Of a stretch of 64,000 bases of DNA, positions 1,344-42,889 are shown one piece after another (position 1 is the stretch's first letter; each line of letters begins with the position of its first letter). This stretch comes from a virus (lineage: Duplodnaviria > Heunggongvirae > Uroviricota > Caudoviricetes), in the IMG/VR virus record IMGVR_UViG_3300013102_000006, positions 19,869 to 83,868 of that record. One strand, given 5' to 3'. Position numbers and translations under genes: made by a program. The notes under the pieces are model-generated. The model ran no database searches and had not been told where the DNA came from. It saw only the letters and a list, made by a program, of their open reading frames with translations.

Positions 1344-3896
1344 CTATACTATTCTCCAGTTAGAACCATCTGAAACTATGTCAAGTGATGTGTTCGGGGT
1401 TAAAGTTACGGTCGTACTTCCGTCGATTGTTTGCGAGGAAGTCGTAGAGATTGTTTTGTTCGTTGAGTGGATGTTTTTGATTGTGTACATATTGGTGTTA
1501 GATACTGCTGTAGGTAGAGTAGGAGCACCACCAGAGTTAACAAACACGACATAATCTGTAGCAGCGGTTGCTCCGATCGTTACAGAGGTGGTGATAGTTG
1601 ATATATTTCGTGTAATACCAGAACCGCCCGAGCCGTTAGACGCAGCAGTCACACGACCTTTAGCGTCAACAGTAATGTTTGCATTCGTAAATGAACCGAC
1701 ATTTGAGTTAACAGTAGCAAGCGTAGTAGCGTTGGTATTATTTGCAGAGCCGTTGAATGAGCTACCTGTGCTTGTCACGTCACCTGTTAGTGTACCAATC
1801 GTACGGCTAGTTGTTAGGGTTGCTGCTGAACCTGTAGTATTCTGATTAAATGTTGGAAATGTGTTAGTTCCAGATGTCAGGTCCTTATTTGTAAGCGCCT
1901 GTGTTGATGTATCGCCAACGAGGGTAACGCTACTGGAGCCTGGAAGGCTATAAGTTCTGCTTACTCCAGATACACCACTAAGTGCGAAGTTTGCGGTGTT
2001 TGTAGTATCGGTGTCTTTTGTGATAGTAAGACTACCAGATTTAAGTGTAGCGTTATTTGTTGTATCTATAGTTTTATTGGTAATGGTTTGAGTATCCGAT
2101 GTACCAACGACCGTTCCAGATGGAGCTGTTTTAGTTGCCCAAGTATCAAGGTCGGCATCCCATGCTTGAACGTTTGTGCCAATAACGAGCCCAAGAGTTG
2201 TTCTCACCTGAGCTGGAGTTCTACTAGCCCATGCTGAAGCTACTGAGACTATGAAGTTATCAGTTGTAGGAGTAAGTCCAGCGATTGTTGCGAGATCTGA
2301 GTCATATGCTTGTACATCTGTACCTATTACAAGACCTAGGTTTGTTCTAGCGCCCGATGCTGTACTTGCGCCCGTACCACCATCCGCTACAGCTACATCT
2401 GTGCCAGCAGGGTGATATACCGTGCTCGAGGTGTCTACATAGTTCTTGGTAGCGGCATCTTGGGCACTTGAAGGGTCCGCCATATCGGTAATCTTGAATG
2501 CGCGCATGTCAAGGTGGTCATTGTAGAATGTAGCCACGTTGTTTTGAGTGGTTCCATCACTTACATAGATGTCGTATGCGCCATTGCTCGTAACAAGTTG
2601 CATACCGTACTTGCTGAATATACGTCCTGGAGATGTTGAACCAAATGGGGCATCAAGACCTGCAAGAGCTGCAGATGGAGTTACTGAGTTAGCGGCAACA
2701 CCAAAACCAGTAGTGAAGATTTTGTTACCACCAATTGTGCTTTGGTCGCTTGTAAGGTCTACGTGACCATATCGAGAGTTTGTAGAGAGACTTGTATTAG
2801 CTGTTGCTGGCGTACCAAGTATGCTCACTTCAAGCCAAGTGTTACTATCGCCAGTAGCGCTCTCATGTAAGGCGTAGCGCGCTTTATTGGTTGCTTCTGT
2901 TATTGTCTTTACACTACTGAATAAGTTACCACTAGAAGCGTGTCCGCCTGATGCACCTTCAAGAAGGATTTCATCATAAGTGTTAGTAGTAGTTTGTGAG
3001 TTATTCTTAACTACCAGATTATTCCATATATTGTCTGCGCTCTGGTAACAATAGATACCGTGATAGCCGTTGTTTTCTACTACAAGGTTAGTAAATACTT
3101 GTCTATCTTGTTTGTATATGTTTACACCATATTGTCCGTTGTTTGTGGACGAACAGTTTGCGAATTGGTTAGCTTCAGAAAGCCAAGCAGATACGTCAGC
3201 ATTTGCAGCATTGAAAGCGATACCATATTGGTCGTTGCCATCGAAATGACAGTTAACAAAGTGGTTATACTTCGAACCTGTGCCACTTACTTCACCAGGT
3301 GATACAAGAAGGCCGTGCAATAGGTTAGCGTCTCCATAAAGACTGCCGAATTTAGAGCCTACACATTGTTCGACTTCGAATCCATGGTAATTGTTGTCTG
3401 TCGAGTAGCAGTTCTCAATTGTCGCAGCTGAGGCGTTATAAGCATGTATACCAACACCAGTGGTGCTTTTAACTACAACGTTTCGTACAGTTATTGTACC
3501 TGTACCAGTTACGTAGATACCGTATTGTGTATGTGTGTAGCTTCCAGGAGAGCCGCCTTGGTTAGTTCTGTTACCATCAACAACGAGTTCTTCAATGGTC
3601 ACATTGTCGTAGTCCTCAGACTTAATGATGTTATCGTCTGTTGTAGAGCTTGCGACTAGCTTAAGGACGGTTCCGCCACCAGCGCCCCTGAAGGTTATGT
3701 TATCTTTGACTTGAATGCCTGTGTTAACTATGTATGTGCCAGCAGGAAGATATACTACAGCGCCACCTGCAGCGTATGCAGCGTCTATTGTAGCTTGGAT
3801 GGCAGAGGTATCATTAGTAGAACCGTCACCTTTGGCTCCATAAGCCGTGACGTTATAAGCATCTTGTACTGTTATTGGCGAGAGGCGTTTAACCAT
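1344..3896 (-). CDS. Tailspike / tail fiber with pectate-lyase-like right-handed beta-helix (probable polysaccharide depolymerase)
   Basis: 850 aa; N-terminus [40 protein letters not shown] is typical of pectate-lyase-3 / tailspike beta-helix proteins; repeated Asn/Gly rungs ([18 protein letters not shown]..., [15 protein letters not shown]...); contains the tail-fiber motif [15 protein letters not shown] shared with the next gene. Confidence 0.6.
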
Positions 3897-3909: not shown

Positions 3910-5109
3910 TTATCCTATGATGACGACTTTGTATGCGTTTGAAGCAGGAGCAACTGCGAAGGTGAATGTGGTTACAGTTGTAGAAGTGTTAACAACGTCA
4001 CATTCTACTACAGCATTTGTTGATGCATCTCTTACTTGTGATAGGACATCTTGGTTCCCAAGGTTGTGTGTTACCGCGATTGATGTAGATGAACCATTAC
4101 CGATTGTTGCTGCATACTTAAGTGGGAAGTTTACAAGGCCAGAAGGAGTGACTGCTTTTGCTGTGTTGCTTCGAGCTTCAGTTTCAGCTTGAGTTGCAAG
4201 TTGTACCTTACCAGCAGTGCTTGTTGAGGCGTTTGGAACTGTACCACCGTTAATTTGTGTCCATACGGTTGCTGTTGTGCCAATTGTTACTGATTCTACC
4301 GTTTGAGTCCATGCAGTATCAGCGTTTGCCGTACCTGCAGTGACGTATACAGTAGCGCCGTTAAGTTCTGTGCCTGAGTTAGCGTCTGATGCTCGAGTAG
4401 GAGCGCCTGATGCGTTTACAGTGTAAATACCGTTCTCAGAGCCAGTAGTTTGGTCTTTGATTAAGATTCTATCACCAGTTGCAAGTGTTACACCATCAAC
4501 GGTTGAACCATTTGCGTATGCAGATGCTAATGTACCGTTAGTTGTGGTTGCAGCACGTACTGCTTGCTTCCAAGAGAGTCCTTGAACAGCGTTATCTACG
4601 TATGCTTTGGTTGCAGCATCTTGCGCGCTTGTTGGGTCGGCAAGGCTTGTAAGCTTATGAGAGTTTATAGAGTAGTCAGCAGTAGCGGCACCAACGTCGT
4701 TAAGAGTAGCGTTACTGAATCCACCAGCACCATCACCCTTAAGAGCAGATGTACCAGATGTAGCTGGAGCATAGTCTGTACCTGATGTGGCAGTACCCAA
4801 TACCCCAGAAGTCAACTTAGCAAGACCTGTACCAGTTGCTCGCTTAATTGTCTTACCACCAGTACCAGAGAACACGGCTACTTCGCCATCTACTGATGTT
4901 GATGTGTTTGAAGATACGTCACCAGTCGCAGTGCTTGTACCCATGTAGTCCCAAGTGGAACCGTTGTAAACACCAAACTTTCCTAATGTGGTGTCGTAGT
5001 ACTCTTGACCAGTTACAGGGCTTGAAGGAGCGGATGCAAGGTTTTGAATACGTGCATTGCGAAGTTCATTCTGTGCAAGGTCTATATCGACTAAAAATTT
5101 CTTTGCCAT
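3910..5109 (-). CDS. Tail fiber protein
   Basis: 399 aa; N-terminus MAKKFLVDIDLAQNELRNARIQNLASAPSSPVTGQEYYDTTLGKFGVYNGSTWDY is a classic phage tail-fiber anchor; carries the motif [17 protein letters not shown]. Confidence 0.65.
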   Translation of the reverse strand: MAKKFLVDIDLAQNELRNARIQNLASAPSSPVTGQEYYDTTLGKFGVYNGSTWDYMGTSTATGDVSSNTSTSVDGEVAVFSGTGGKTIKRATGTGLAKLTSGVLGTATSGTDYAPATSGTSALKGDGAGGFSNATLNDVGAATADYSINSHKLTSLADPTSAQDAATKAYVDNAVQGLSWKQAVRAATTTNGTLASAYANGSTVDGVTLATGDRILIKDQTTGSENGIYTVNASGAPTRASDANSGTELNGATVYVTAGTANADTAWTQTVESVTIGTTATVWTQINGGTVPNASTSTAGKVQLATQAETEARSNTAKAVTPSGLVNFPLKYAATIGNGSSTSIAVTHNLGNQDVLSQVRDASTNAVVECDVVNTSTTVTTFTFAVAPASNAYKVVIIG

Positions 5110-6355: not shown

Positions 6356-9300
6356 CTAGTTTTTTATAACCAATACATATTCACAGTTACAGTTTGGGTG
6401 TACGTTTCCTGCACTGATTGACTCCCAGTTAATAGGGAGATGTTTCACCTTCTTAGCGCCATTGTCTGAAGTCTCTGTCACAGATAGGATTGAGCCTAGG
6501 TCTGCAAAGTTCTTCATAAATGGAATAGGTGGCATATCAATTAGTAGCTTACAATAAGCACAAGGTGTACCAGTTCGGCTACGTAGCTGTTTGTAAGCCT
6601 GTGGCATAAGACCGCTACTGTTTAGGAATTGTCTGTCTGCTTCAAACTGTGATTGGTTAAATACCCGAGCTGCTTCAGTTCTAGCGATGGTAGTAGCTCG
6701 GTTCTTAGATATTTCTGGGTACTTCTTACGGATAGAGTTAGAGATGCTCGTACGTCCTTCGCCCTGTAGAGCAAGCTTCTGAGCCTCTTTGTACATATCA
6801 GTGTCATCGAACTTACCAGAAAGTACAGCTACTTCTATTTGAGACTGTGTAGGGTTATCAGGAAGGACATCAAGCACTGACTTTTTACCAGCTGCCGCAG
6901 CTGCAGTCACAAGAAGTATGAGTTCGGTGATGATTGCTGCACCATAAGCGATAGTGGCTGCGGTAAGTATATCTTCCATGACCGTAGCAACATGAGATAT
7001 TGATGCTTTTTGAGCCATTTGTTCGATATAGTCCTGTGCCTCAGAAGTCATTTCGTAAGTTCCAACGACTCCATATTCAGCAGAGCGTTGAGCAAGTAGC
7101 TGACGGCCGAATATTGGGTAGAGATTAATGTAGAACACGTTTAGTAACGCGTCTACTTCTTGTTCAAACTTCTTTTGTTGGGCTTTTGTTAGTGGTGCAC
7201 CATTGTCTGTAAGATAACCTAGATTCTGGTTGTTAGCGGCTGCTTCAACCATTTCACGTTCGATTATCTCAAACCCGTCGCGCAATTTGTTTTGCTGAGC
7301 CTTGATAATATCGCGTGTAGCGTCGTCTAAGGCGTTCTCAGCGACGATAAGTCCAGTAGGCGATACTGAGTAGTGTTCATGTCCGATAGAGCTTAGAGAC
7401 GATTCTACAGCGTTGTCAGATTTCTTTGCTTCTTCTTTTCTGTCACCGTAGTTTATGCCTACAGCATCGACAGTCTTACCAGCGTATTCTTTATTGAGTG
7501 TAGACACCCAGTTATTGACATTCGCAGTCTTTTTAACGTATGCAAGTGTCATATGTGGCATGTATTCACTGAAGGTATTAACATGTGGCAATAGTGTAAG
7601 CCGTTCATGGCCATCCACTAGTTCAGAGGTCTTTTCAAGGTGAGCTACGACTGCATAAGAGTCAGGAGTGTCAAAGTACCCAACATGGTTAATCTTTACA
7701 GAGTTTACATTCCACCCTTTTAGAAGTGCGTCAACCTTGTTCTTCCAAGTGTTGCCGTTTTCTAGAAGACCATATAGAAGTGTCACATGAGGAACTGTCT
7801 CTGCAGGTACTGCGCCTTGGTCCCACTTAGGATTAGCGAATAGTTCGTCTTCGTGACCTTGCATGTGCTCCATCACCTTCATAGGCTTAAGATCGAGCAT
7901 AATACAACCAAGGTTATCGGTATCTATCTCCATGTCGTCATATAGCTCAGGAAAGTCGCGTGATGATATCTGGTTAGCTATCTTTATGGAATTGCCAACG
8001 ACTGGCTTAATGCCAGGAATCGCTGTAGATTGAGTTAGAAACTTAGTAGTACTGACAGAGTTGTTACTCGTATCTGGAGTTGGCGATGTTACGTCTTCAG
8101 GAACCGCGCCATCTTCTTCCCGAGCAGTAACAGCATCGGTATTCTGATTATCTGAAGGTGTATCTGGAGTTGGAGGATTAGGGTCGTTATTTTGGTCATC
8201 GATAGGTTCACCAAGCTCCTCCCAAGTAATCTCACCTGATGCAAAGGCAAATGACTTTTGTCTGTCATAACCAGCGTCAATAAGTTGCTGAGCAAGCTTC
8301 ACTTCAGCTGTTCGGATTTCTACATCCTTAAGCTCTGCATCGCGGTCTTTCTCTACTGGAGAGTCAACAACAATCTCGAACTCGTTTTGTTCCCACTCCT
8401 TGTACCATTTACGATAGTCAAGGTTAAGCGCATCAGCAATGTCTTCAGCACGTGGGATGATGGCGTCGACAGTAAAGTTAGCGTCCTGTACTTCTGAAGT
8501 ATCTCGAGTCGTGCCTGATTCCTCAATACCTGCAGTAGTCTTTGACATAGCTGCAACGGCAAGAAGAATGTCCCGTTGAATAGCGTTGATTTTATCAAGA
8601 GCCGCCTTATCAAGGTCAATTTGCATATCTTGCCAGTTAATGACACCAGAGCCATTACCAAAGATAGGCTCACCCTTTTGGTGCCCTATGATACGTGCTT
8701 TGAAGTTCTCAAACTTCTGCGGATCAAGCTCTACGTCAGTGGTTACGATACCAGGGGCTGATATGTTTCCATTAATGGTTTGGCGTGTATAGTCGCTAGC
8801 TTGTCGTAGTGTGAACTGAGACTCTCTAGCGGCGTCCATCATTGAGTATGACTGGTCCTTGTTGAAAGGATTCAACATTCTAATTTCAATGATTTGTTCA
8901 GGAGCCCATTCTCGGTAGAATCCATTATGAGACTCTACATACCCACCGACTTCACCTGTGGTTTCATTGATGACGCGTCGGACTTCATATGGGTTGATAA
9001 GCACGAACTGTTGAACTGCTCCAACAGCGACTTCACCATCTTTTGTTATACGAGAGTTACGTACGGTACCAAGATAGTAAACACCTTTAAGGTCTAGGTA
9101 TGTAGATATTTCATACCAGAATTGCTTCTTTGTGTATTCCTTAGAGCGTTTGATTACCGTTAGATAAGGGTGAACTATTTCCTGGTCTTTTTTCTGGTAC
9201 TGCTCGGTGGTTTTCTTTGATGCTTCGGTTTCAATGAAGCGTCGGCCAAGAACAGAGGTTCTATTGGCACGTTTAGTAATGACTGCGTATCCGTAGTCCT

Positions 9301-9466
9301 TGTACAAATTCTCATCTGACATCTTAACATCAGACCAGTTTTGCATCAATGGTTTTTCTCCGTTGCCGAATCGGAGGAATCTGTTAGCTTCGGAGACAGG
9401 TAGACTATTTTCGGTCTTGTTTGTCAGAGCTTGGACGGCAAGTTTGATTCTTTTTGGAAAGTCCAT
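6356..9466 (-). CDS. Portal protein fused to a LigT-like 2H phosphoesterase domain and a C-terminal Mu-F-like head morphogenesis (minor capsid) domain
   Basis: 1036 aa. Residues about 1-420 look like a portal. Residues about 515-680 carry two H-x-T-x motifs 78 aa apart (VPHVTLLYGLL and MPHMTLAYV), the signature of 2H/LigT phosphoesterases. The C-terminal 190 aa carry Mu-F/SPP1-gp7 family features (TIARTEAARVFNQSQF...CAYCKLL...HPNCNCEY). Confidence 0.75.
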   Translation of the reverse strand: MDFPKRIKLAVQALTNKTENSLPVSEANRFLRFGNGEKPLMQNWSDVKMSDENLYKDYGYAVITKRANRTSVLGRRFIETEASKKTTEQYQKKDQEIVHPYLTVIKRSKEYTKKQFWYEISTYLDLKGVYYLGTVRNSRITKDGEVAVGAVQQFVLINPYEVRRVINETTGEVGGYVESHNGFYREWAPEQIIEIRMLNPFNKDQSYSMMDAARESQFTLRQASDYTRQTINGNISAPGIVTTDVELDPQKFENFKARIIGHQKGEPIFGNGSGVINWQDMQIDLDKAALDKINAIQRDILLAVAAMSKTTAGIEESGTTRDTSEVQDANFTVDAIIPRAEDIADALNLDYRKWYKEWEQNEFEIVVDSPVEKDRDAELKDVEIRTAEVKLAQQLIDAGYDRQKSFAFASGEITWEELGEPIDDQNNDPNPPTPDTPSDNQNTDAVTAREEDGAVPEDVTSPTPDTSNNSVSTTKFLTQSTAIPGIKPVVGNSIKIANQISSRDFPELYDDMEIDTDNLGCIMLDLKPMKVMEHMQGHEDELFANPKWDQGAVPAETVPHVTLLYGLLENGNTWKNKVDALLKGWNVNSVKINHVGYFDTPDSYAVVAHLEKTSELVDGHERLTLLPHVNTFSEYMPHMTLAYVKKTANVNNWVSTLNKEYAGKTVDAVGINYGDRKEEAKKSDNAVESSLSSIGHEHYSVSPTGLIVAENALDDATRDIIKAQQNKLRDGFEIIEREMVEAAANNQNLGYLTDNGAPLTKAQQKKFEQEVDALLNVFYINLYPIFGRQLLAQRSAEYGVVGTYEMTSEAQDYIEQMAQKASISHVATVMEDILTAATIAYGAAIITELILLVTAAAAAGKKSVLDVLPDNPTQSQIEVAVLSGKFDDTDMYKEAQKLALQGEGRTSISNSIRKKYPEISKNRATTIARTEAARVFNQSQFEADRQFLNSSGLMPQAYKQLRSRTGTPCAYCKLLIDMPPIPFMKNFADLGSILSVTETSDNGAKKVKHLPINWESISAGNVHPNCNCEYVLVIKN

Positions 9467-18661: not shown

Positions 18662-18901
18662 CTAGGAGATTATCTCCCAGTTATCCACAAAGTAATCGAA
18701 AGGTATGGTTCTGGTGCTGAACCTATTCAATGAATCGTAACCAGATACACAAACGTATGCCTCTTTCTCTGAGTCACCGAGATTACCATAGCCAGTGATT
18801 GCCCACTCATTGGCTTTACCAATCCTCCTTACACGCCTGCCAAGTGAGATCACGCGTATCATTCGTATACCTTTTGAATATTGGCGATTTTTGTAAGCCA
18901 A
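18662..18901 (-). CDS. Hypothetical protein
   Basis: 79 aa ORF. Confidence 0.3.
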   Translation of the reverse strand: MAYKNRQYSKGIRMIRVISLGRRVRRIGKANEWAITGYGNLGDSEKEAYVCVSGYDSLNRFSTRTIPFDYFVDNWEIIS

Positions 18902-19560
18902 GCATAGTCTGCACGAGCAAAGTAATTGGTATGGTCTTTTAGAATGAAGGTACCATACTTCTGTTGGTCTGTTCGAAGCTCTGGGTCAACATCTTTATTC
19001 AATAGCATCATATGCATCTCAAGTACGCCCTTATTCTGCAGTTCTTTCTGGCGGAAGTTGCTCCTTGCGAGCATTTGGATAGAGTTACGCTCCCAGTCTC
19101 GTTGTCGCCATAGAAATACATTCTGCCATTCGTCTTCAGGTACATTAAATGCTCGAGCATCGAACATGGCAAGATTGACTTTATCATCCATAACCTTACA
19201 TGTCTGCCAAAAATCATTGAAATGCGCTGTAAACATACTTGCAGTAATAGATACGAGCTTATTTATCTCATAATCGTACCAAGCTTCTGTATCAAGCGTA
19301 TCGTAGTCAGTGAGCAGGAAGCTTGCCTCATCAGACTGAACATAAGCCAATTGGAAGCCCTGCATATGCTTAGATGTTTCTCGAGCAGCATATACCATAG
19401 CATCCATAACTGAGCTATCAAATGGCTTATCACAGTTCTTTGTGAACGTATGAAAAGCTTTACCATCTACTCGTATAACTACTGGCGTACGACGCGTTAG
19501 AAGGTGCTTAGGGACAGCCTCATAGCGTTTTACGCGGTCACCCAGTGTGTCTTTATTCAT
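18859..19560 (-). CDS. Thg1-like protein (tRNA-His guanylyltransferase family; 3'-5' nucleotidyltransferase for tRNA 5'-end repair)
   Basis: 233 aa; VVIRVDGKAFHTF matches the Thg1 motif VVVRLDGRNFHRF; AYVQSDEASFLL matches AYGQSDEYSF with the catalytic acidic residues; length fits Thg1-like proteins. Confidence 0.7.
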   Translation of the reverse strand: MNKDTLGDRVKRYEAVPKHLLTRRTPVVIRVDGKAFHTFTKNCDKPFDSSVMDAMVYAARETSKHMQGFQLAYVQSDEASFLLTDYDTLDTEAWYDYEINKLVSITASMFTAHFNDFWQTCKVMDDKVNLAMFDARAFNVPEDEWQNVFLWRQRDWERNSIQMLARSNFRQKELQNKGVLEMHMMLLNKDVDPELRTDQQKYGTFILKDHTNYFARADYAWLTKIANIQKVYE

Positions 19561-21386: not shown

Positions 21387-21718
21387 AGAGACAACTCCCC
21401 AATCAGCCTTCCATCCTTTGTGTAATAGAATGAAGTGCTCCCCATCGGATGCTCACGGCTTCCATCGCCTTTTTCAACGGTAACTTTCACTACTGTAATA
21501 ATCTCCATCTTAGGAGCATATGGGTTGAACACTGGTTCAATTATTTTAGCTCGACGTGCTACCTCAAACGGGTCATTGTTTGGGTTATATTCTGGTTTGC
21601 TCACTTTTAAAAATCCTTTCAAATACTGCCTGAATGACATTGGTAGTAACAGCATTGCCACACATTTTATATCGTTGTGTATCGCTAATATCCACCATCT
21701 TTGTCCCGCCGCATTCAT
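21383..21718 (-). CDS. Hypothetical protein
   Basis: 111 aa ORF; overlaps the 5' end of the methyltransferase ORF as annotated, so the real methyltransferase start may be an internal Met. Confidence 0.25.
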   Translation of the reverse strand: MNAAGQRWWILAIHNDIKCVAMLLLPMSFRQYLKGFLKVSKPEYNPNNDPFEVARRAKIIEPVFNPYAPKMEIITVVKVTVEKGDGSREHPMGSTSFYYTKDGRLIGELSL

Positions 21719-22775
21719 GAGCTATATCATCATTTTCATCCATATCGAATTGTTCGATACATACATTACAAGACAAGTTCACATCACAACCTTGCATAGT
21801 CCAGTAGTCTGGTAACCCCTGCAGACGTTCACACTCTAGTGGTGTAAGGCGACGTATTCTGACGTCATCGGTCAAAGTATACTGTTGCATACCTGTGTCT
21901 AGTGTCTGCGCAACATCACTCACGCGTCCACGTCTAGTCTTACTGTTCCGTGCTGTGAGATTTATAGAGTTTCCAGGAGTTGCTTCAGCATAACCTTTGC
22001 TAGTTGCCTCTGATATTTTAACAACTGGCTGACCGCTGCCATCTTGACGAGCTCGGGCTGGTAACGTAGGAACTACCCCGGACTTCGACGCTCTAAATCC
22101 ATTACTGTCGCTATATGTACGATATGTACCTACTTCGGGTTGTTCTTCACCATTGACAGTATTTTCTTCTGCTTTTCCAATGATAGGAAATACTTCGGGT
22201 CGGGATGTTCCTCTAAGATGTCCGACAATGATAACCCTTTCACGGTTTTGTGGGACGCCGAAATCCTTGCTGTTAAGCACCTGCCACTGAACGTCGTACC
22301 CCAATTCATATAAGGTAGAGATGATTGTTTTAAAGGTTCTTCCCCCGTCGTGACTGAGAAGTCCTTTGACGTTCTCAAATACGAAAAGACGTGGTTGTTT
22401 TTCCCTGAGAATCCGTGCAAGGTCAAAAAAGAGCGTACCTCTCGTATCAGAAAAACCTCCCCGTTTACCTGCGATACTAAATGCCTGACAAGGGAAGCCA
22501 CCGATGAGGCAGTCAAAGCTGGGTAGCTCTTTTGCGTTGATTTTTGTGATGTCGCCATAGTTTTTGACTCCTTTGAAGTGATATTTATAGACTCTGTCGG
22601 CCCATTTATCAATCTCTGAGTAACCAACACATACTGGAACTGTGATGCGCTCCAACTGGTTGGTATTGTCATCGCTATTGGACTCGTTCTTATTTCGCGA
22701 CGAGAATTCCTCAAAAGCATTTCGTATTCCAACTTCAAATCCTCCTATGCCGCTAAATGTACTGAAATATCTCAT
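21585..22775 (-). CDS. DNA (cytosine-5)-methyltransferase
   Basis: 396 aa; motif I FSGIGGF, motif IV GFPCQAFS (catalytic Cys in PCQ), motif VI VFENVKGLLS, motif VIII VPQNRERVIIVG. Confidence 0.8.
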   Translation of the reverse strand: MRYFSTFSGIGGFEVGIRNAFEEFSSRNKNESNSDDNTNQLERITVPVCVGYSEIDKWADRVYKYHFKGVKNYGDITKINAKELPSFDCLIGGFPCQAFSIAGKRGGFSDTRGTLFFDLARILREKQPRLFVFENVKGLLSHDGGRTFKTIISTLYELGYDVQWQVLNSKDFGVPQNRERVIIVGHLRGTSRPEVFPIIGKAEENTVNGEEQPEVGTYRTYSDSNGFRASKSGVVPTLPARARQDGSGQPVVKISEATSKGYAEATPGNSINLTARNSKTRRGRVSDVAQTLDTGMQQYTLTDDVRIRRLTPLECERLQGLPDYWTMQGCDVNLSCNVCIEQFDMDENDDIAHECGGTKMVDISDTQRYKMCGNAVTTNVIQAVFERIFKSEQTRI

Positions 22776-25444: not shown

Positions 25445-26778
25445 TATTCGCTCTCCAAAATTTTATCTGATAATTCGTTAATAATAAATGTCTGAAATTC
25501 TCGAGTATTATCGCTATAACCAGACTTCTTGTGAAGCAGCTCTTCAAGGAGTAGCACAGTTTTGTCTCGGCGACTCCAGTTAATGCTGTGATCGCAGAGA
25601 ACAATCAGATTTTCTTCTGAATCAAATTTACCAAGAATATCATCATCTTTAAACTTACCTAGCTTAATATTCTCAAATGGGAAGGTGAATCCAGCCTTAC
25701 TGAGCCTTTCATACACTTCTTTGTAGTCGCTGTCTGGTTCTCCAGTGAGCCTATATGCATTCTTAGATGTAGAACCTGCTATATCAAGCTCATCTCCGAA
25801 CTGTTCCTTGAGTAACTTAATCATCTTTGATGGAAGTCCTATGGTCTTCGCAGTGACGCCATAGAACCCAGTCAGGTCAATCGGTACAATCCTCTTTTTC
25901 TTTAGCTGATTTAACCACTCATCACTGAATCTTCCTTTTGTGACAGCATCATAGTTGTATCCAAAAAAGTCGCTGGTCATAATGTACGACCATGTAGTGT
26001 CATTATACTCAATGTTCTTATATTCTTTCCAACTGTCAATGAACTTCTTAATCACATTCTTGTTGGTGCTGAACATTAAGGCCTCGCCAATCATCTGTTG
26101 AGCCTTCCAAGACTCGCGCATTACTCGGCTCTCATTTATCTCGATGTCAGTAAAATCGTAATCAAATAGTGACTTTGCAGATTTGATCTCTCCAACTCGA
26201 ATACCTCGCCTAAAGAATACTGGATACTCGATAAGTCGCTTAGAGAATATCTTGTATGACCTTTTCCTATCAAATGAACCTGTGAGTGATGTCTCATCAA
26301 CTACAGGACGCTTAAAGCTGAAGTAGTCTTGCCAGTTCTTTGTAACATCCCCGAGCTTATCGCTCATCTCGATATAGATTTTCGTCGCACCTTTATCAGG
26401 TGACATATCAGATACTAGCTCCATTGAGCCGCCTTCGTCTATGGTATTGCTATAGATTTCTCGAATAGCGAACCACGGCTCCCAATCTGGACCAGCTTGC
26501 GTTGTTAGTGATGTCTTCTCCCCATCAACAGTGATAACATCAAAGGTAGCACCACTGAAGTTCTGTTGAATAAGACCGAATTTAACTTCTTTTTTACCAG
26601 CGTATACTTTGAAATCGATTCCTTCGCGTAGCATAAGCGCTGTGGCATACTTTAGACCGCTTCCAAAGAACCCAATCTTATCAGTTGCGTCTCGTTTACT
26701 AGATGCGCCGAGGAGCTTAAATGCATTGAGGTCAATCTCACCCTTGTTTGCAAACTCCATATACATTTGGTTACTCAT
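25444..26778 (-). CDS. Hypothetical 444-aa protein, possibly nucleotide-binding
   Basis: Largest early-region ORF; Gly-rich segment DKIGFFGSGLKYATALML faintly resembles a GHKL G2-box; no firm assignment. Confidence 0.35.
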   Translation of the reverse strand: MSNQMYMEFANKGEIDLNAFKLLGASSKRDATDKIGFFGSGLKYATALMLREGIDFKVYAGKKEVKFGLIQQNFSGATFDVITVDGEKTSLTTQAGPDWEPWFAIREIYSNTIDEGGSMELVSDMSPDKGATKIYIEMSDKLGDVTKNWQDYFSFKRPVVDETSLTGSFDRKRSYKIFSKRLIEYPVFFRRGIRVGEIKSAKSLFDYDFTDIEINESRVMRESWKAQQMIGEALMFSTNKNVIKKFIDSWKEYKNIEYNDTTWSYIMTSDFFGYNYDAVTKGRFSDEWLNQLKKKRIVPIDLTGFYGVTAKTIGLPSKMIKLLKEQFGDELDIAGSTSKNAYRLTGEPDSDYKEVYERLSKAGFTFPFENIKLGKFKDDDILGKFDSEENLIVLCDHSINWSRRDKTVLLLEELLHKKSGYSDNTREFQTFIINELSDKILESE

Positions 26779-27202
26779 TTAGATACTCCGTTACTTTCTT
26801 TGCTATTTGCTTAGTGATACCCTTCTTCCATTCAGTTTTGAATAGAGGTTGGTCTTTATAGAAATCTGATTCGTCGTCTAGAATTGCATATTTAGTTATT
26901 TCTGGATGCTCCTTTATATAAGCTTTTACTTCATCACCTCTAGATTTATCGGGAATGTTCGGTGTTTTACCATAAATGTCTGGGTACACAGCACTTTTGA
27001 TTTGCTTCATGCCTTCTGGATGGTTTCTCCACGATGATGAAATAACCAGCACGCATCCCGTGTCAAGGATTATCTTTCCTACCGTAAATGCCATCTGTGG
27101 GTCTATTCCAAGGCTAGTGCCTATCTTCTTTTTAAGGTATTGCCTAACGAGAGATTCTTCGCTGTTACAAACGCCATCAATGTCTAAGAAAAGCGCCTTC
27201 AT
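26771..27202 (-). CDS. HAD-superfamily phosphatase (small, 5'-nucleotidase-like)
   Basis: 143 aa; N-terminal MKALFLDIDGVCN is the HAD DxDG motif I; a downstream ILDDESDF acidic motif. Confidence 0.5.
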   Translation of the reverse strand: MKALFLDIDGVCNSEESLVRQYLKKKIGTSLGIDPQMAFTVGKIILDTGCVLVISSSWRNHPEGMKQIKSAVYPDIYGKTPNIPDKSRGDEVKAYIKEHPEITKYAILDDESDFYKDQPLFKTEWKKGITKQIAKKVTEYLNE

Positions 27203-31610: not shown

Positions 31611-32387
31611 TTACTTTAATGGAATACTTAGTATGCTACTGCTACCAGATACGGTAGTAGGAAGAACACCATTCCACTTGTCTAGAGCCTTGCTCTGGTT
31701 TTCGATTTCTTTTAAGTGTAGGTAGTTGTCAGTAAGGGTTTGTGCTTGAACTTCTTGTGCTTGTGCGTCTAGACGGGCTTGGTCAAGATTAAACTGTGCA
31801 CGTTCGGCGTTTTGTTGAGCAACCTGTCGGCTCTCGATAGCTTTAGTGAACTCTGCTGAGAAGTTCAGGTCAGTGATACTCACGTTTTCTACAGTAATAC
31901 CACGAGCACCTAATCGGTCAACAAGTGCGACCTTTACTTCGCTTTCAACCTGCGCACGCTTCGCGATTAGGTCGACAGCGTTGTACTTAGCGGAATTAGA
32001 TTTAAATGCTGACTGAATCGCTGGAGTGATAAGTGTATCTTTATATCCTACACCAACAGTCTTGTGTATATCAGATACTTTACCGCGCTCTAGGTGATAG
32101 TTAACGACTACAGTTGAACTCACATCCTGTAGGTCGGCTGTAGCCGCAGCTGCAGTCTGACTTTCCTTCTGGGTCTTAATATCATATTCTGTCACGTTAT
32201 TAGCGCCCCAAGGTGCTACCCAGGCAAAGCCTTCTGATAGTTCGCGCCCAGTAACTTTACCATAACTCGTAACAACACCAATCTTACCTGTACCTACAGA
32301 TCGCATTGAGCTGAAGAAAGTAATCACTCCCAATAGTACTAAGATTGATATCAGTGTAACACTTACATACTTGCGTGTACGGTTCAT
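31611..32387 (-). CDS. SPFH/band-7 (prohibitin/HflC-like) domain protein
   Basis: 258 aa; N-terminal TM helix, then an SPFH-like core and a coiled-coil region rich in Q/A repeats. Confidence 0.5.
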   Translation of the reverse strand: MNRTRKYVSVTLISILVLLGVITFFSSMRSVGTGKIGVVTSYGKVTGRELSEGFAWVAPWGANNVTEYDIKTQKESQTAAAATADLQDVSSTVVVNYHLERGKVSDIHKTVGVGYKDTLITPAIQSAFKSNSAKYNAVDLIAKRAQVESEVKVALVDRLGARGITVENVSITDLNFSAEFTKAIESRQVAQQNAERAQFNLDQARLDAQAQEVQAQTLTDNYLHLKEIENQSKALDKWNGVLPTTVSGSSSILSIPLK

Positions 32388-33725: not shown

Positions 33726-34172
33726 CTATCTATCAATTTCTAGAGAAAACTTTATGAAGTCTTTGTATAAATTGAATGAACTAAATGTAAGTTTCACGTT
33801 GTCATTGTCCTTATCGAGAATCTGACTTGATAACGCGGTGATTGTGTGTGGGTCGATTTCATTTACGCCCTCGTCCACAATCATATTTGCAGAGAAACCT
33901 CGTTGGTCGAGGTATGTTTCAATGTTTCTAATATGTTCTTCATTACGAGCTTCAAGAACGATAATAGTCTTATGCGGACTCGTAGCCCATAATGACTGCA
34001 TATGCTGGCTAGATTGCATACCTGCGAACATAGCAGCGTGTGAAGCTTGTGCTGCAGCTTTACCTACCGACATACCGAGTGACTTATTGAGAAATATGTA
34101 TACTACAGGATTTTCCCGTTTTTCTACAACTTCTCCTATTTCGACTGGCTTATTATCGTCGCGCTTTGCCAT
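33726..34172 (-). CDS. PTH2-family peptidyl-tRNA hydrolase-like protein
   Basis: 148 aa; VGKAAAQASHAA matches the PTH2 signature GK(x)AAQ(x)(x)HA. Confidence 0.5.
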   Translation of the reverse strand: MAKRDDNKPVEIGEVVEKRENPVVYIFLNKSLGMSVGKAAAQASHAAMFAGMQSSQHMQSLWATSPHKTIIVLEARNEEHIRNIETYLDQRGFSANMIVDEGVNEIDPHTITALSSQILDKDNDNVKLTFSSFNLYKDFIKFSLEIDR

Positions 34173-34347
34173 AATAATCTTTTCCCATTACATAAGACTC
34201 GACAGCTTTATAAATCGATTCGTTATCTTCAGATGTCGACGAAAATATTCTGTCCATAGTCTTTGACTTGTACCGAAGAATTGCAGTCACACCATACTCA
34301 TTTCGTACGATTACTACAGATTCTGGCATTTCTCTTTTAAAAATCAT
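34153..34347 (-). CDS. Hypothetical protein
   Basis: 64 aa ORF. Confidence 0.25.
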   Translation of the reverse strand: MIFKREMPESVVIVRNEYGVTAILRYKSKTMDRIFSSTSEDNESIYKAVESYVMGKDYYGKARR

Positions 34348-35239
34348 AATAAGGGTCTCCTAATTGCATTACTGGTAAGCCAAGTTCGTCTCTCCACATT
34401 CTACAGACTGATGGTCGATCATCGAATATAGCGAGTACATTGTATTTTCCCTTTATGTACTTCTCATACATTTCTCGCTTTACAACGGTATCTTTGACTT
34501 GATTTCCACTGGCATCAGTATGGTCAGAGCGGCGCATGTGTAATTCTTTATAAGCGATATCATTTCGGTCTAGCCAATCTTCAGTCTCAGGTCGGCATAT
34601 CTCATCCCTACCGCTAAATAGTATTATCTCTGCTCGTTCAGTCTCAGCGATAGCATCAATCATAAATGCTACACTTGGGTCTGCCTCGTCTTCACCAACA
34701 AACTTCCAGGCATATGCAGCTTTATCACCAAATCTCTTCCTAGTTGTCATATGCGCTAGCGTTCCATCTATATCTGAGATAACGACATACGGAAGGTTCT
34801 CGTCATATTCAGGAGCGTCTATTGGCTTTTTAACAAATTGATGATACATATCACGTATTACTCGTTCGCCAACTGACCTAGAGCGTTTCAAATCACGCCT
34901 TACGCATTCCTCGATAGGAACCTTAAGGAATGAATCATTTACTTCAAATTCAGCTCCGAACTCATCGGCCATCTTTTTGAGAGACTTCTCATGCACTGGG
35001 TTAAGATTTGTGTCATCAACTACGACGCTCTTGTTGTGTTCTAGTGCCGCGCGAATCATAGCATCTCTTGTCCACAATACTTGCTTTTCATGTTTGCGCT
35101 TATAATGTTCACCAAAGAGCATCTCTCGGATGTCATCTTTATTTACTCGGTAGTACCCACTCTCAGAAAGCGTACGAGCGTACGTACTCTTACCAGATGC
35201 TGGTAGACCCTTTGTCATAATCAGCTTTAATTTTGCCAT
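34337..35239 (-). CDS. pnk: Polynucleotide kinase-phosphatase (T4 Pnk-like: 5'-kinase plus 3'-phosphatase)
   Basis: 300 aa; N-terminal P-loop MTKGLPASGKSTYARTL (kinase); C-terminal HAD phosphatase motif VVISDIDGTLA. Confidence 0.75.
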   Translation of the reverse strand: MAKLKLIMTKGLPASGKSTYARTLSESGYYRVNKDDIREMLFGEHYKRKHEKQVLWTRDAMIRAALEHNKSVVVDDTNLNPVHEKSLKKMADEFGAEFEVNDSFLKVPIEECVRRDLKRSRSVGERVIRDMYHQFVKKPIDAPEYDENLPYVVISDIDGTLAHMTTRKRFGDKAAYAWKFVGEDEADPSVAFMIDAIAETERAEIILFSGRDEICRPETEDWLDRNDIAYKELHMRRSDHTDASGNQVKDTVVKREMYEKYIKGKYNVLAIFDDRPSVCRMWRDELGLPVMQLGDPYYDF

Positions 35240-35240
35240 T

Positions 35241-36164
35241 TTATCGTTCCGTATCAGCTACTGATAGACTGTTATTCAATATGTCGTGATATATTTGAAT
35301 AAACTTCCTATTACACAGCCCTTTTAGTTTTTTAAAGTTAAGAGCAGGTACTTTTTTAACTATTTCCCATATCTCTTCTGTAATGAGGTCGTGGTAGCAA
35401 GTGCCAGCAATTTGGCTGGTGTGCTTCATATTAAGTCGTTCTTCAGTCTGCGACTGCAGCTTTTGAATGATTTTTTCTACACGAGCGACTGTACAGTATT
35501 TGTTAACAACATACATTTCCCAGTATGTTTCTGAGTGCTTATTATTACCACCAAACACAATAGCATTTGATTCCTTGAACTTTTCATGGACAACCTTTGC
35601 ATATACGTGGTCACCAAATTTGTTCACAAAGTTCGCAGCCTTAAGTACTACACCCTCACCTGCAGGTGCAATAGCAGATTTACCTACGAATTCTTTAATC
35701 TCATCAAGCGTAAGTTTACCTTCAGCAAATACGTGAGGATATTCGAGTCCTAGAAATTCTGCTTCGGCTTTTACATCTTCCTGAGGTAGCCACCTATCAT
35801 TAGCTCTGTCGTAAATATCAAACAGATAGATTTTCTCATAGGCTGCATCTGGATATGTAATGGTGTGCTTCACAAGCCATTCGCCATAAAGAATATGGTC
35901 AGGATTTCGGCTAAAGTACATAGCGAGACTTAAGTTATTTTGAACAGCCTCTTGAAAACCTCTAAAAGATTCATCTTCAGGTAGCATTCTGGTACGAGTA
36001 CCGCAACGAATCTTACCATCAAGCTGAAATATAGAGATGTTCGCGCCATCTACTTTTTCTTGAACTATTAGTTCTTCATCTAAGATACCATCGGTCTCTT
36101 CTTTTCCGAGTCGATGTATTTTTTCGTATTTTCTGTATTCCACTTCATTTTCCCCTATATACAT
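35241..36164 (-). CDS. RNA ligase (Rnl2-like ATP-dependent nucleotidyltransferase)
   Basis: 307 aa; motif I QEKVDGANI (KxDG), motif IV GEGVVLK, motif V YAKVVHEKFK; adjacent to pnk as in T4 tRNA repair. Confidence 0.65.
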   Translation of the reverse strand: MYIGENEVEYRKYEKIHRLGKEETDGILDEELIVQEKVDGANISIFQLDGKIRCGTRTRMLPEDESFRGFQEAVQNNLSLAMYFSRNPDHILYGEWLVKHTITYPDAAYEKIYLFDIYDRANDRWLPQEDVKAEAEFLGLEYPHVFAEGKLTLDEIKEFVGKSAIAPAGEGVVLKAANFVNKFGDHVYAKVVHEKFKESNAIVFGGNNKHSETYWEMYVVNKYCTVARVEKIIQKLQSQTEERLNMKHTSQIAGTCYHDLITEEIWEIVKKVPALNFKKLKGLCNRKFIQIYHDILNNSLSVADTER

Positions 36165-36967
36165 TATCTCTTATTGAGCTTATGCTTGTCAATAGGTAGA
36201 ACCTCCCAAAATGAATCATTTTTCTTTACAATAGTAGTTTCAACTGTTGACTCGTCAGGTATGAGTATTTCACGCTGATTTTTAAGTTGCTGATTGAAAT
36301 GTTTACATACAACTGAATAATCAACCATATTAGTATAGCCATTCTGACGTAGTTCTAATCCCATAGAGATATCTGGTCCAAGAGATTGATATGTATGGAA
36401 GACGTGGTTCTTGTATATGTTCGCATCAATCAGTGCGCAGTAGAATCCTCCCGCATCGATGTTTTCTATGCCTGAATCCTTATAGGGAATAGATGTAGTA
36501 CTTGTCGGGTTATAGATATCATTGAACCTCCACCCACCGATATATGGAATTCCCCACCTACCGAGCTCGACACCCTCAGCGTATACACACCCTGGAGTAT
36601 TTCTAAATATGTTCATAAGCTTAGTAAGGGCGTTTCTAGGGACAATTGTGTCATCTTCAGTAAGGAATACGTAATCAGCTATACCCACTCTGCTCTTTGC
36701 AAAATTATGGATAGCAGTAATCCTCTTACGTCGTGCGAGCCAATCGAATCTTTTTACTGGCTTAGTCTCAGGATACTTTACAGTTAAACGTTCGTTAAAC
36801 TTTGTGTCCTGAATCATGTTTCTGACTTTAACGTACAGTTTATTATCACCGTCAACGATACATAGTAAATTAGTATATGTAGGATCGCAGTCTATAAGCT
36901 CGAGCGCTGATATTACATCAGTAAGATATTCTTCTCTCGAGACAGTTAATATTATAGTAATAGTCAT
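36164..36967 (-). CDS. Glycosyltransferase, GT-A fold (family-2-like)
   Basis: 267 aa; N-terminal Rossmann-like start (TITIILTVSRE), DxD-like FLTEDDTIV. Confidence 0.5.
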   Translation of the reverse strand: MTITIILTVSREEYLTDVISALELIDCDPTYTNLLCIVDGDNKLYVKVRNMIQDTKFNERLTVKYPETKPVKRFDWLARRKRITAIHNFAKSRVGIADYVFLTEDDTIVPRNALTKLMNIFRNTPGCVYAEGVELGRWGIPYIGGWRFNDIYNPTSTTSIPYKDSGIENIDAGGFYCALIDANIYKNHVFHTYQSLGPDISMGLELRQNGYTNMVDYSVVCKHFNQQLKNQREILIPDESTVETTIVKKNDSFWEVLPIDKHKLNKR

Positions 36968-37608: not shown

Positions 37609-37609
37609 T

Positions 37610-40312: not shown

Positions 40313-40468
40313 CTTCCATTTCTACAACGTCAGCATAAAAGTAAGGTCCTTCTCGCTGTGCAAGTGCAAGTTGCTCCTGATAATACGCGTCAGCTTTTTC
40401 TTCAGTACTGAATACTTTTTCTGGGTAATGATCTTCAATATCATTAGCAGTATAAACCCATACTTTCA

Positions 40469-42853: not shown

Positions 42854-42889
42854 CAGGATATTCCCTTTTGTTTATACTTTTCTGGAATA

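Follow-up and report, generated by a model that had tools for sequence, protein, structure and literature searches.

To our knowledge, the phage enzymes characterized so far as destroyers of immune messengers (Acb1, Apyc1, Acb5 and PDE-9) are all free proteins made after infection starts, and we know of no experimental demonstration to date of a signal-degrading counter-defense enzyme that is delivered together with the genome. Iyer et al. (2017, PMC5512222; 2022, PMC9503650) reported phage "polyvalent proteins" in which a 2H domain is joined to a Mu-F or a portal domain, and hypothesized that these 2H domains are packaged in the head and injected, and that they degrade 2'-5' or cyclic (oligo)nucleotide defense signals or act as RNases; both papers are purely computational. 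Mu-F domains are defined by their context, as part of the portal ORF or of the gene that directly follows it (PMC5576092). SPP1 gp7 reaches the capsid interior via the portal, and toxin delivery by Mu-F fusions has the status of a proposal (PMC6316719). Activity on cGAMP has been shown for an avian poxvirus phosphodiesterase (Nomburg et al. 2024, PMC11410667). In actinobacteriophages, "Portal and MuF-like fusion protein" is a recognized and routine annotation for portal-MuF fusions. Both the type of fusion treated here and its proposed anti-immune role were thus already described computationally in 2017 and 2022, and the novelty suggested by the initial annotation of our locus, which knew of no described portal-2H-MuF architecture, is not supported.

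The window analyzed here is the whole 64,000-nt stretch of DNA from a virus of the class Caudoviricetes. It holds, exactly as proposed in the initial annotation, one ORF that encodes a portal domain, a 2H domain and a Mu-F domain in a single protein (Table 1). This single ORF is not an assembly artifact, because a 1036-aa product with identical sequence is present in two independent assemblies (ENA ERZ27252506 and Logan SRR7975684) and the uninterrupted portal-2H-MuF architecture is kept in many diverged relatives, down to 35-36% identity; a misassembly, or the frameshift between separate genes that the initial annotation had allowed for, is thereby ruled out. The portal-2H-MuF fusion is real and is common among related metagenomic phages, and database searches returned 424 relatives of the protein. 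In the full-length model, three segments are folded (aa 59-420, 500-677 and 704-1036), and pLDDT is below 50 between them. A sequence-profile search of the PDB with the full-length family alignment gave no match at E ≤0.01. In one relative (L034), the ORF is broken in the linker in a manner that resembles a 1-nt indel.

Table 1. Features of the portal-2H-MuF protein and their positions in the window
Feature	Position (nt)	Strand	Basis or remark
Polyvalent head protein (portal, linker, 2H, linker, Mu-F)	6356..9466	minus	Complete ORF, ATG start, 1036 aa + stop
Portal module, aa 1-422 (folded core ~aa 59-420)	8201..9466	minus	Pfam, PHROG, full-length model
Linker 1, aa 423-499 (77 residues), disordered	7970..8200	minus	pLDDT <50
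2H phosphoesterase cassette, aa 500-677	7436..7969	minus	Folded domain; about 180-195 aa
First catalytic motif H560-V-T-L (HxTx)	7778..7789	minus	PHVTLLYG starts at aa 559
Second catalytic motif H638-M-T-L (HxTx)	7544..7555	minus	PHMTLAY starts at aa 637; within conserved SEYxPHxTLAY
Linker 2, aa 678-703, disordered, charged	7358..7435	minus	pLDDT <50; poorly conserved
Mu-F (SPP1 gp7-like head morphogenesis) module, aa 704-1036	6359..7357	minus	PHROG, family Pfam matches, folded in model
Mu-F signature TIARTEAARVFN, aa 926-937	6656..6691	minus	Aligned to 'LTARTEGHRV' of SPP1 gp7
C-terminal Cys/His cluster, C969-x-x-C972 + H1023-x-N-C1026-x-C1028	6383..6562	minus	CAYCK at aa 969, HPNCNCEY at aa 1023

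The N-terminal module clearly exceeds the 39.1-bit cutoff of Phage_portal (PF04860), with 66.2 bits over aa 77-378 (E 3.8e-18). This Pfam family is also matched by 34 of the 36 family members, and the PHROG portal match reaches E 1.8e-22. The genes behind the portal ORF encode head-decoration-like, tail-spike, tail-terminator and tape-measure proteins, which places the ORF in a structural/packaging module; a putative terminase gene, with a weak ResIII match only, lies ~20 kb away. Linker 1 is rich in Asp, Pro, Thr, Ser and Asn (D/E/P/S/T/N/Q/G residues together make up 73%) and is only ~23% identical to the corresponding segment of the relatives. In three of these relatives (L055, L057 and L059), the portal and X-MuF parts are split at this linker into separate genes, and the Mu-F gene starts 2-4 nt past the portal stop codon.

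The C-terminal Mu-F domain reported in the initial annotation is supported by PHROG 2468 ("head morphogenesis"; aa 761-946, E 6.7e-8) and by PF04233, which is matched by 27 of the 36 family members at E ≤0.01 (best E 1.3e-7); the 1036-aa protein itself scores 17.8 bits with this model, below the cutoff of 29.6. Direct hhalign comparison with SPP1 gp6 and gp7 gave no significant match, and only the Mu-F signature G.G..I...IARTE..RV was aligned, to gp7 residues 160-195 (E 0.067). The fusion to a portal corresponds to the genomic context of the Mu-F family, whose members are fused to the portal or encoded immediately downstream. All 36 aligned family sequences share R923, A928 and R934 as well as C969, C972, H1023, N1025, C1026 and C1028, and the pattern H[PV]NCxCxYxL is specific enough to retrieve 87 IMG/VR relatives. 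Judged from its sequence, the C-terminal cluster of Cys and His residues probably binds a metal. The conserved motif NH[IV]EDEHD or GHEH that follows the cassette was considered as a possible cleavage site, but it is not specific to the cassette: relatives that lack 2H carry it too, and it belongs to the N-terminus of Mu-F.

Between the portal and Mu-F modules lies the 2H cassette. The initial annotation had recognized a 2H phosphoesterase from two HxTx motifs 78 residues apart, within nt 7427-7924 (aa 515-680), and this range agrees with the folded domain, which we place at aa 500-677 (nt 7436-7969). The two motifs do not lie outside a 2H fold, an outcome for which the initial annotation had made provision; the domain is bilobed and alpha+beta, as 2H proteins are. 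With PF13563 (2_5_RNA_ligase2), the whole protein reaches 33 bits and the isolated domain 36.5 bits, both above the cutoff of 27. The similarity of the protein to the portal and 2H families far exceeds what chance would give. Both catalytic histidines, H560 and H638, are invariant among 30 family members, in which the Thr of the first motif is at least 90% conserved, and 82/82 standalone and 60/61 fused members of the clade (142/143 together) have two or more HxT/S motifs. The segment is a genuine 2H fold with intact predicted catalytic motifs. At the level of its sequence, moreover, the cassette is under strong purifying selection and is conserved as much as the portal: the mean identity to relatives is 64% in 2H and 63% in the portal, and it drops to 49% in Mu-F and to 23-32% in the linkers.

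Within the 2H superfamily, the similarity to the Acb1 family (PF23474) straddles the cutoff of 27: the whole protein stays below it with 24.1 bits, and the isolated domain passes it with 28.2 bits. Of 30 relatives, 29 match this family at E ≤0.01, but PF13563 scores higher in every case. With LigT_PEase (PF02834), the isolated domain scores 16.7 bits, under the cutoff of 23.3, and 12 of 30 relatives match at E ≤0.01. The structure is not closer to Acb1 than to other 2H families. Nor is the cassette a small standalone protein with a C-terminal lid, as is typical of Acb1; it is embedded in a 1036-aa protein, the extra element that is conserved in it (F-P-x-[ILV]-Y) lies at the N-terminal end, and its C-terminus passes directly into an unconserved acidic linker. 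A PDB search with the 2H profile returned weak matches, every one of them a 2H protein, and the nearest solved structure is a viral cGAMP phosphodiesterase. These comparisons bear on the first option of Iyer et al. 2017, an injected or capsid-associated RNase, which here would be a Usb1-like 3'-5' exoribonuclease or an endonuclease acting on host RNAs, e.g., crRNAs or U-tailed RNAs. The identity of the cassette to Usb1 is only 10%, the penguinpox cGAMP phosphodiesterase is clearly the better structural match and no RNA-binding module accompanies the domain, which argue against an RNase; we consider it quite improbable.

Comparison of the relatives reveals, at the level of domain composition, that the 2H module is an accessory cassette that is gained or lost as a discrete unit. 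Two relatives (P0014 and P0015) are 66-67% identical to the protein overall, and 73% in the portal core, yet lack exactly the 2H module, which is present in 62 of the best 120 relatives and in 14 of ~78 IMG/VR loci. Other relatives carry Zeta toxin, ADPrib_exo_Tox or ART-PolyVal domains on the same head-protein scaffold, in place of the cassette or beside it. The protein can therefore be counted among the polyvalent proteins, which have at least two domains, are encoded among head-packaging genes and vary in composition between orthologues. Could the cassette then be a catalytically dead spacer or an assembly element? Two 2H groups were inactive on the panel of Doherty et al., and a degenerate domain is thus conceivable in principle. 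However, the catalytic His are invariant, the Thr/Ser are conserved, the domain is as conserved as the portal, and close relatives assemble the same scaffold in the absence of the cassette, so that 2H is not structurally required; we regard a structural filler as very improbable indeed.

The 2H clade extends well beyond this scaffold and comprises 3,424 representative clusters at E ≤1e-3. Its members also occur as 2H-MuF proteins that lack a portal and as standalone proteins of ~190 aa; among the best 150 representatives, 89 are standalone, 25 are 2H-MuF and at least 16 are portal-2H(-MuF). When 50,697 phage records were searched by megablast and tblastn with the whole ORF and with the Mu-F part, no portal or Mu-F relative was found, and standalone 2H genes were the only matches. 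Single-protein scans of IMG/VR yielded only 3-4 close relatives on other contigs, with flanks of 10 kb.

The genome carries an unusually rich RNA-repair set, consisting of an RNA ligase, PNKP, a CCA-adding enzyme and Thg1. With the tRNA-repair genes of the window in view, the initial annotation had offered the processing of the 2',3'-cyclic phosphate ends left by host anticodon nucleases as an alternative. Spelled out, the packaged 2H domain would in this reading be a LigT/CPDase-like 2',3'-cyclic phosphodiesterase that opens these tRNA ends and works together with the four enzymes. The rich repair set is indeed there, but a part for 2H in it has become less likely, because the PNKP kinase/phosphatase, with its HAD phosphatase domain, immediately adjoins the RNA ligase, and T4-type healing and sealing needs PNKP alone. 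The product of a 2H CPDase would, furthermore, still bear a 2'-phosphate, for whose removal Tpt1/KptA is needed, and no such gene was detected among the 40 window genes scanned with Pfam; the window also contains no second 2H gene that we could find. The ligase and PNKP genes lie 25 kb from the cassette, which sits inside a structural gene, and in the 2H-bearing IMG/VR relatives no repair gene occurs within 10 kb of the portal except Thg1 in one locus (L004). The presence of ART and Zeta-toxin effector domains on the scaffold of relatives also speaks against RNA-end healing, as does the closest cultured standalone homologue, which has no ligase nearby. Taken together, we consider a healing enzyme unlikely, although the rich repair set leaves some probability to an RNA-related role.

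We propose instead, with a confidence that falls a little short of even, that the 2H cassette is a capsid-internal phosphodiesterase effector against nucleotide immune signals, for which Acb1 and the cGAMP phosphodiesterase of avian poxviruses offer parallels. In the single polypeptide, the portal subunit is covalently extended, via the 77-residue disordered linker, by the 2H cassette and then by the Mu-F module. Portal C-termini point into the capsid interior in established portal structures, and every assembled virion would thus carry up to twelve intact 2H copies just inside the DNA exit channel. The cassette may then serve as an early-acting effector. As a phosphodiesterase that needs no metal, it would cleave nucleotide second messengers of the host at, or even before, the onset of phage gene expression; candidate substrates are the cyclic di- or tri-nucleotides or the 2'-5'-linked oligonucleotides with which CBASS, type III CRISPR or similar defenses signal. 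The domain could be released by cleavage of the linkers and exit with the DNA or, alternatively, act in the producing cell before assembly. The capsid-interior location, the mode of release or exit and the identity of the substrate are thus what we infer from the architecture and the fold. A packaged, Acb1-like phosphodiesterase role is mildly favored in our analysis because the nearest solved structure is a viral cGAMP phosphodiesterase.

Delivery of the 2H domain would require cleavage, because portal subunits are built firmly into the capsid. Neither a prohead protease nor a major capsid protein was found by PHROGs, Pfam and PDB sequence searches in ~20 neighboring structural genes, including 10 kb beyond the window, and no conserved cleavage motif for the release of 2H was recognized in the protein. 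The failure to find either a protease or a cleavage site favors an enzyme that is not delivered and works only in the producing cell, where unassembled late copies would degrade immune signals and the fusion would guarantee co-expression. Immune signals are often triggered by late structural proteins. Reportedly, Vinga et al. in 2006 did not detect co-ejection of SPP1 gp7 with the DNA in vitro, which points the same way, and the predominance of standalone proteins in the clade (89 of the best 150 representatives), located in non-structural regions, indicates that virion association is not required for function. Nevertheless, the cassette consistently accompanies Mu-F, with or without a portal, it shares its scaffold with ART and Zeta domains, for which T4 Alt sets the paradigm of packaging and injection, and the flexible linkers on both sides suit a releasable cargo. 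We therefore assign a low probability to an activity confined to the producing cell. As for delivery itself, a pre-armed virion, in which twelve portal-tethered, cGAMP-PDE-like copies are cut free at the linkers, enter with the first DNA and blunt signaling before transcription, is possible but doubtful.

If the proposal is true, a signal-degrading enzyme at the portal vertex would act earlier than the free phage enzymes, and virion cargo would extend to counter-signaling enzymes, beside toxins and ADP-ribosyltransferases. If the pre-armed virion holds, no group of prokaryotic viruses would have a closer relative of the cGAMP phosphodiesterase of avian poxviruses than this large phage 2H clade. 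The family is well defined, highly conserved and abundant, with established boundaries (aa 500-677), catalytic residues (H560/H638) and natural cassette-less controls. Proteins of cultured actinophages may stand in experimentally, and the published prediction thereby becomes directly testable.

Among the known systems, the polyvalent proteins of Iyer et al. resemble our locus in the class of architecture, in the hypothesis attached to it and in the ART and Zeta-toxin domains of relatives; the RNA ligase and PNKP set of this genome is contrary to a generalization made in their work. The Mu-F polymorphic toxins (Jamet et al. 2017, PMC5576092) and T4 Alt likewise couple an effector to a portal-associated head protein; the muf gene of the toxins is immediately downstream of or fused to the portal, and relatives of our protein also bear a C-terminal ART or Zeta domain after Mu-F. 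However, Mu-F toxins carry the effector C-terminally, whereas here it is N-terminal to Mu-F, between portal and Mu-F; they belong to small temperate siphoviruses, whereas this genome looks like that of a large lytic-type phage with a tRNA array; and the phosphodiesterase is a candidate for counter-defense, not a toxin.

Long 2H-like head proteins of cultured actinophages were retrieved from BFVD, for example, the 1050-aa "capsid morphogenesis protein" of Microbacterium phage OneinaGillian and the 883-aa "putative structural protein" of Gordonia phage GMA2; these matches are weak (E 3e-4 to 8e-4, 15-17% identity), and tblastn revealed no sequence similarity of the actinophage proteins to this portal or Mu-F. 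Mass spectrometry has been published for phage GMA2, and its 883-aa 2H-like protein is a lead only, tied to no detected peptide. The closest cultured relatives of the cassette are the standalone 2H proteins of Microbacterium and Rhodococcus phages (for example, Magritte gp236, annotated as "3'-5' RNA ligase", and cluster "phosphoesterase" genes), with 42% identity over 165 aa (E 7e-30) and BFVD TM values of 0.74-0.84. They have the N-terminal element and both motifs in common with the cassette but are free proteins of ~190 aa; their genes lie in non-structural regions, and neither a portal or Mu-F gene nor an RNA ligase gene is close to them.

Further close systems are Acb1 (T4 gp57B and FBB1 Acb1; PDB 7T26, 7T27) and PDE-9 of Burkholderia phage BCSR5 (PDB 9Q2Y, 9Q2G). 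The penguinpox/pigeonpox cGAMP phosphodiesterase (PDB 9BKQ, 9CIW; PMC11410667) is 14-16% identical to the cassette and differs from it in being a standalone protein of ~200 aa from a eukaryotic virus, whose histidines, H72 and H167, are 95 residues apart compared with 78 in the cassette.

The ORF listing returns a single ATG-start frame for the portal-2H-MuF protein, and every motif quoted in the initial annotation lies within it. Among them are the two 2H motifs, in which 78 residues separate the catalytic H560 from H638. In Pfam, the 1036-aa protein passes the Phage_portal threshold over aa 77-378 (E 3.8e-18) and matches 2_5_RNA_ligase2, a 2H family, over aa 557-671 (33 bits; cutoff 27); the Acb1 model scores slightly below its cutoff (24.1 bits; cutoff 27) and Phage_Mu_F is weak (17.8 bits; cutoff 29.6). 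Independently, PHROGs assigns portal, an 'RNA ligase'-annotated family over the 2H region, and 'head morphogenesis'. These module matches confirm the original observation and exclude a chance pair of motifs. At the family level, PF04233 is matched by 27 of 36 members, and on that basis the protein is counted with Mu-F as well as with the portal family and the 2H superfamily; it also has the properties by which polyvalent proteins were defined in print. The frameshift that might have split the ORF is not seen: the frame is intact, and the identical 1036-aa product occurs in an 84.8-kb ENA contig and in a Logan assembly made independently from a different run. With the diverged relatives described below, this marks the fusion as genuine and old.

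Features of the portal-2H-MuF protein and its genomic surroundings (window coordinates unless stated otherwise)
Feature	Location	Strand	Remarks
Portal-2H-MuF ORF	6356-9466	-	1036 codons
PHVTLLYG	from residue 559 of 1036-aa ORF		2H motif 1; H560
PHMTLAY	from residue 637 of 1036-aa ORF		2H motif 2; H638
TIARTEAARVFN	residue 926 of 1036-aa ORF
CAYCK	residue 969 of 1036-aa ORF
HPNCNCEY	residue 1023 of 1036-aa ORF
850-aa tail-spike-like protein	1344-3896	-	pectate-lyase/beta-helix
399-aa protein	3910-5109	-	'head decoration' and virion structural PHROGs
849-aa protein	L091 13017-15566	+	~3 kb past window start, position expected for head genes
Sole candidate large terminase, 460 aa	28952-30334	-	weak ResIII helicase/ATPase match
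RNA repair/maturation set	18859-19560, 26771-27202, 33726-38653, 41414-42853, 45072-47931	all -	unusually rich
PNKP (kinase + HAD phosphatase)	34337-35239	-	directly adjoins RNA ligase
RNA ligase	35241-36164	-	directly adjoins PNKP
Glycosyltransferase-like run	36164-41413	-	between RNA-ligase cluster and Ro60 gene
Ro60/TROVE-vWA gene	41414-42853	-
Partial tRNA-like Rfam match	43088-43150	-	42.8 bits, model positions 5-66; no ARAGORN call
tRNA array, 24 genes	53514-57674	-	~4.2 kb; together all 20 amino acids
Dcm-type C5 cytosine methyltransferase	21585-22775	-
SPFH/Band 7 membrane protein	31611-32387	-
Dual-specificity phosphatase	43256-43774	-

A full-length AlphaFold model, built from a 36-sequence alignment, is folded over aa 59-420, 500-677 and 704-1036, and the pLDDT falls below 50 in the two segments between these regions, linker 1 (aa 423-499) and linker 2 (aa 678-703). 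Both linkers are of low complexity (D/E/P/S/T/N/Q/G make up 73% and 58%, respectively), and their mean identity to relatives is low (23% and 32%), as against 64% for the 2H module, hereafter the cassette, 63% for the portal and 49% for Mu-F. Because the cassette is as conserved as the portal while the linkers vary, these comparisons indicate a working domain under purifying selection, held on flexible tethers.

When aa 500-690 were modeled from 30 family sequences, the structure was confident (mean pLDDT 89.2, pTM 0.82), and its significant Foldseek matches among solved structures were 2H enzymes without exception, so that the proposed 2H fold is borne out by the model. Penguinpox cGAMP phosphodiesterase ranked first (E 1.4e-7), followed by a Burkholderia phage PDE, plant CPDase, Usb1 and Acb1, with LigT lower. 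The isolated domain exceeds the Pfam thresholds for PF13563 (36.5 bits) and Acb1 PF23474 (28.2 bits), the latter model being matched by 29 of 30 relatives, and falls below that for LigT_PEase. We would not classify it as Acb1, given the marginal Pfam score, a structure to which Acb1 is no nearer than LigT, and a form that is neither standalone nor C-terminally lidded. Both catalytic histidines are invariant in the 30 family sequences, and in the wider 2H clade all 82 standalone members and 60 of the 61 fused ones carry two or more HxT/S motifs; that a domain conserved in this manner serves as an inactive spacer is highly improbable. Also common to the clade are a third near-invariant histidine (LLPH, aa 629), which like E556 is clade-specific, and an N-terminal F-P-x-[ILV]-Y element (within aa 500-519) ahead of the first strand. 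In published structures, an N-terminal lid shuts over the substrate in the poxvirus PDE and phage PDE-9, and the lid of Acb1 is C-terminal; by analogy, the F-P-x-[ILV]-Y element may serve as a substrate lid. Tested groups of phage 2H PDEs range from broad activity to none across 18 messengers, and with variation this wide the fold alone cannot give the substrate specificity of such an enzyme.

A search of 5.8 billion proteins found 424 relatives of the 1036-aa protein, including some on contigs of 80-110 kb. When the query modules were mapped onto the best 120 of these, 62 had the uninterrupted order portal, 2H, Mu-F, and about half, ~750-790 aa long, had no insert. Among 80 loci from an IMG/VR scan, 14 carry the cassette, including a clade of just 35-36% identity that retains the same order in one ORF; several members of this clade come from samples numbered 7000000xxx. 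The relatives P0014 and P0015, which are 66-67% identical to the query overall and 73% in the portal core, are missing precisely the stretch that runs from 'NQISSRDFP' to 'INYGD'; in them, linker 1 continues without a break into LSSIGxxHxSxSPxGLI, the conserved beginning of the Mu-F module. The cassette has therefore come or gone since these close relatives diverged, and portal and Mu-F function can do without it. Other relatives carry a longer scaffold, with the arrangements portal-2H-MuF-Zeta toxin (P0025), portal-2H-MuF-ADP-ribosyltransferase (P0048, P0129), portal-MuF-ART-PolyVal (P0116) and portal-2H-ART-PolyVal (P0057). In P0061 (1260 aa), the 2H domain follows the Mu-F module (aa 860-1020) rather than preceding it, which means that the cassette can sit on either side of Mu-F. 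At three IMG/VR loci (L055, L057 and L059), portal and X-MuF are encoded by two genes, the ATG of the second lying 2-4 nt after the stop of the first, which places the fusion point within linker 1. The portals there end in ...QVS or ...TVS, and the junctions (L055 11360-11375, L057 9415-9428, L059 7150-7165) share the motif 'CAGGTAAGYTA(A)nATG', an arrangement that suggests translational coupling of the two genes.

When 1.84 billion representatives were searched with a cassette profile, 3,424 of them matched at E up to 1e-3, the top-scoring matches being fused forms throughout. The best 150 of these comprised 89 standalone proteins no longer than 260 aa, 25 2H-MuF proteins, 16 portal-2H proteins with or without a recognizable Mu-F, and 20 long proteins with an N-terminal region of ~440 aa unmatched by the portal profile. 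The nearest cultured relatives of the cassette are standalone 2H proteins of ~190 aa from Microbacterium and Rhodococcus phages (42% identity), whose genes sit outside the structural regions and have no RNA ligase in their vicinity.

The absence of an RNA ligase from those neighborhoods bears on the possibility that the enzyme heals tRNA 2',3'-cyclic phosphate ends. The RNA-repair gene set cited for that role in the initial annotation is indeed present: besides the adjoining PNKP and RNA ligase genes, the window encodes RlaP, a CCA-adding enzyme, Thg1, a Ro60/TROVE-vWA protein and PTH2, as well as a HAD_SAK_2 domain protein and a Metallophos phosphoesterase. No second 2H gene was found in the window, and a Pfam scan of 40 window genes gave no Tpt1/KptA. 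Repair in this phage, for its part, has no need of a 2H enzyme, and we consider the healing role unlikely. An extra tRNA-like Rfam match (57266-57330), not called by ARAGORN, accompanies the tRNA array. The partial match at 43088-43150 lies in the intergenic gap 42854-43255, immediately upstream of the Ro60/TROVE-vWA gene, and is a possible tRNA-like module from a YrlA-type Y RNA partnering the phage Ro60 orthologue. The glycosyltransferase-like run comprises two GT1-type genes, a 552-aa protein with weak GT47/RXYLT1 matches and an unannotated 267-aa gene; the methyltransferase, SPFH/Band 7 and phosphatase genes are among early or middle genes.

Downstream of the portal gene are small genes, then head-decoration-like and tail-spike genes, and past the window start tail-terminator and tape-measure genes. 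This order of portal, small ORFs, decoration/fibre and tail spike is unusual, and the candidate terminase is ~20 kb from the portal with dozens of small ORFs between, an atypical separation of packaging genes. No prohead protease or major capsid protein was recognized among the neighboring structural genes searched, including those past the window start. The 849-aa protein of locus L091 is proline-rich in its central stretch, and searches of Pfam, PHROGs and PDB sequences gave no match for it; it is possibly a capsid, scaffold or protease protein that has diverged or been fused.

The initial annotation knew of no described portal-2H-MuF architecture; 2H domains in polyvalent proteins, fused to Mu-F or portal domains, have in fact been in print since 2017 (Iyer et al., PMC5512222). 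According to the same paper, such domains were never observed there with RNA ligases, and they were proposed to be Usb1-like RNases or degraders of 2'-5' oligoadenylate/cyclic-nucleotide defence signals. The former activity seems quite improbable here, the closest match being a cGAMP phosphodiesterase. Iyer et al. (2022; PMC9503650) took the fusions to suggest head packaging and injection against SMODS, cyclic-mononucleotide and CRISPR signaling. Mu-F proteins bearing C-terminal toxins are well documented (PMC5576092), 'portal and MuF-like fusion protein' is in standard use as an annotation in actinophages, and in BFVD weak 2H-like matches are seen for long proteins annotated as capsid morphogenesis or structural in cultured actinophages. 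Candidates for cultured phages with 2H in a Mu-F-type protein are Microbacterium phage OneinaGillian and the Gordonia phages MelBins, Tardus and GMA2. Both the architecture class and the counter-signaling hypothesis are already published; the experimental literature on viral 2H PDEs contained no mention that we found of portal or Mu-F fusions, and the published role thus remains a prediction. What is new is a large uncultured lineage whose portal and Mu-F parts have no sequence-detectable relatives among deposited phages, in which the cassette is common, sharply delimited and strongly conserved, and is predicted to be structurally closest to the poxvirus enzyme.

In established portal structures, the C-terminus lies within the capsid. 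SPP1 gp7 enters the capsid interior by binding the portal (PMC6316719), and together these precedents imply that the C-terminal 2H-MuF extension should sit in the head. Interpretation as a packaged phosphodiesterase is reasonable, and an effector directed against host-defence nucleotide second messengers is the most likely role, which we favor tentatively because its closest match among solved structures is a cGAMP phosphodiesterase, relatives across the family match the Acb1 model, the scaffold of relatives also bears ART and Zeta toxin effector domains, and repair in this phage calls for no 2H enzyme. Its significance would be greater if the enzyme entered cells with the DNA and blunted nucleotide signaling. 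Because a portal subunit is unable to leave the capsid, delivery would depend on cleavage in a linker, of which we found no sign, no prohead protease being recognizable nearby. Vinga et al. reportedly observed in 2006 that SPP1 gp7 is not co-ejected in vitro. Delivery of toxins fused to Mu-F is itself still termed 'proposed' (PMC6316719). The lack of a cleavage signal and the gp7 observation would suit an enzyme that acts in the producing cell only, without delivery; the toxin-bearing scaffolds of relatives speak for a packaged effector, and we consider confinement to the producing cell rather improbable. The 2H-MuF extension should be present inside the head in up to twelve copies, in contrast to the free gp7 of SPP1, of which there are one or two (PMC5576092).
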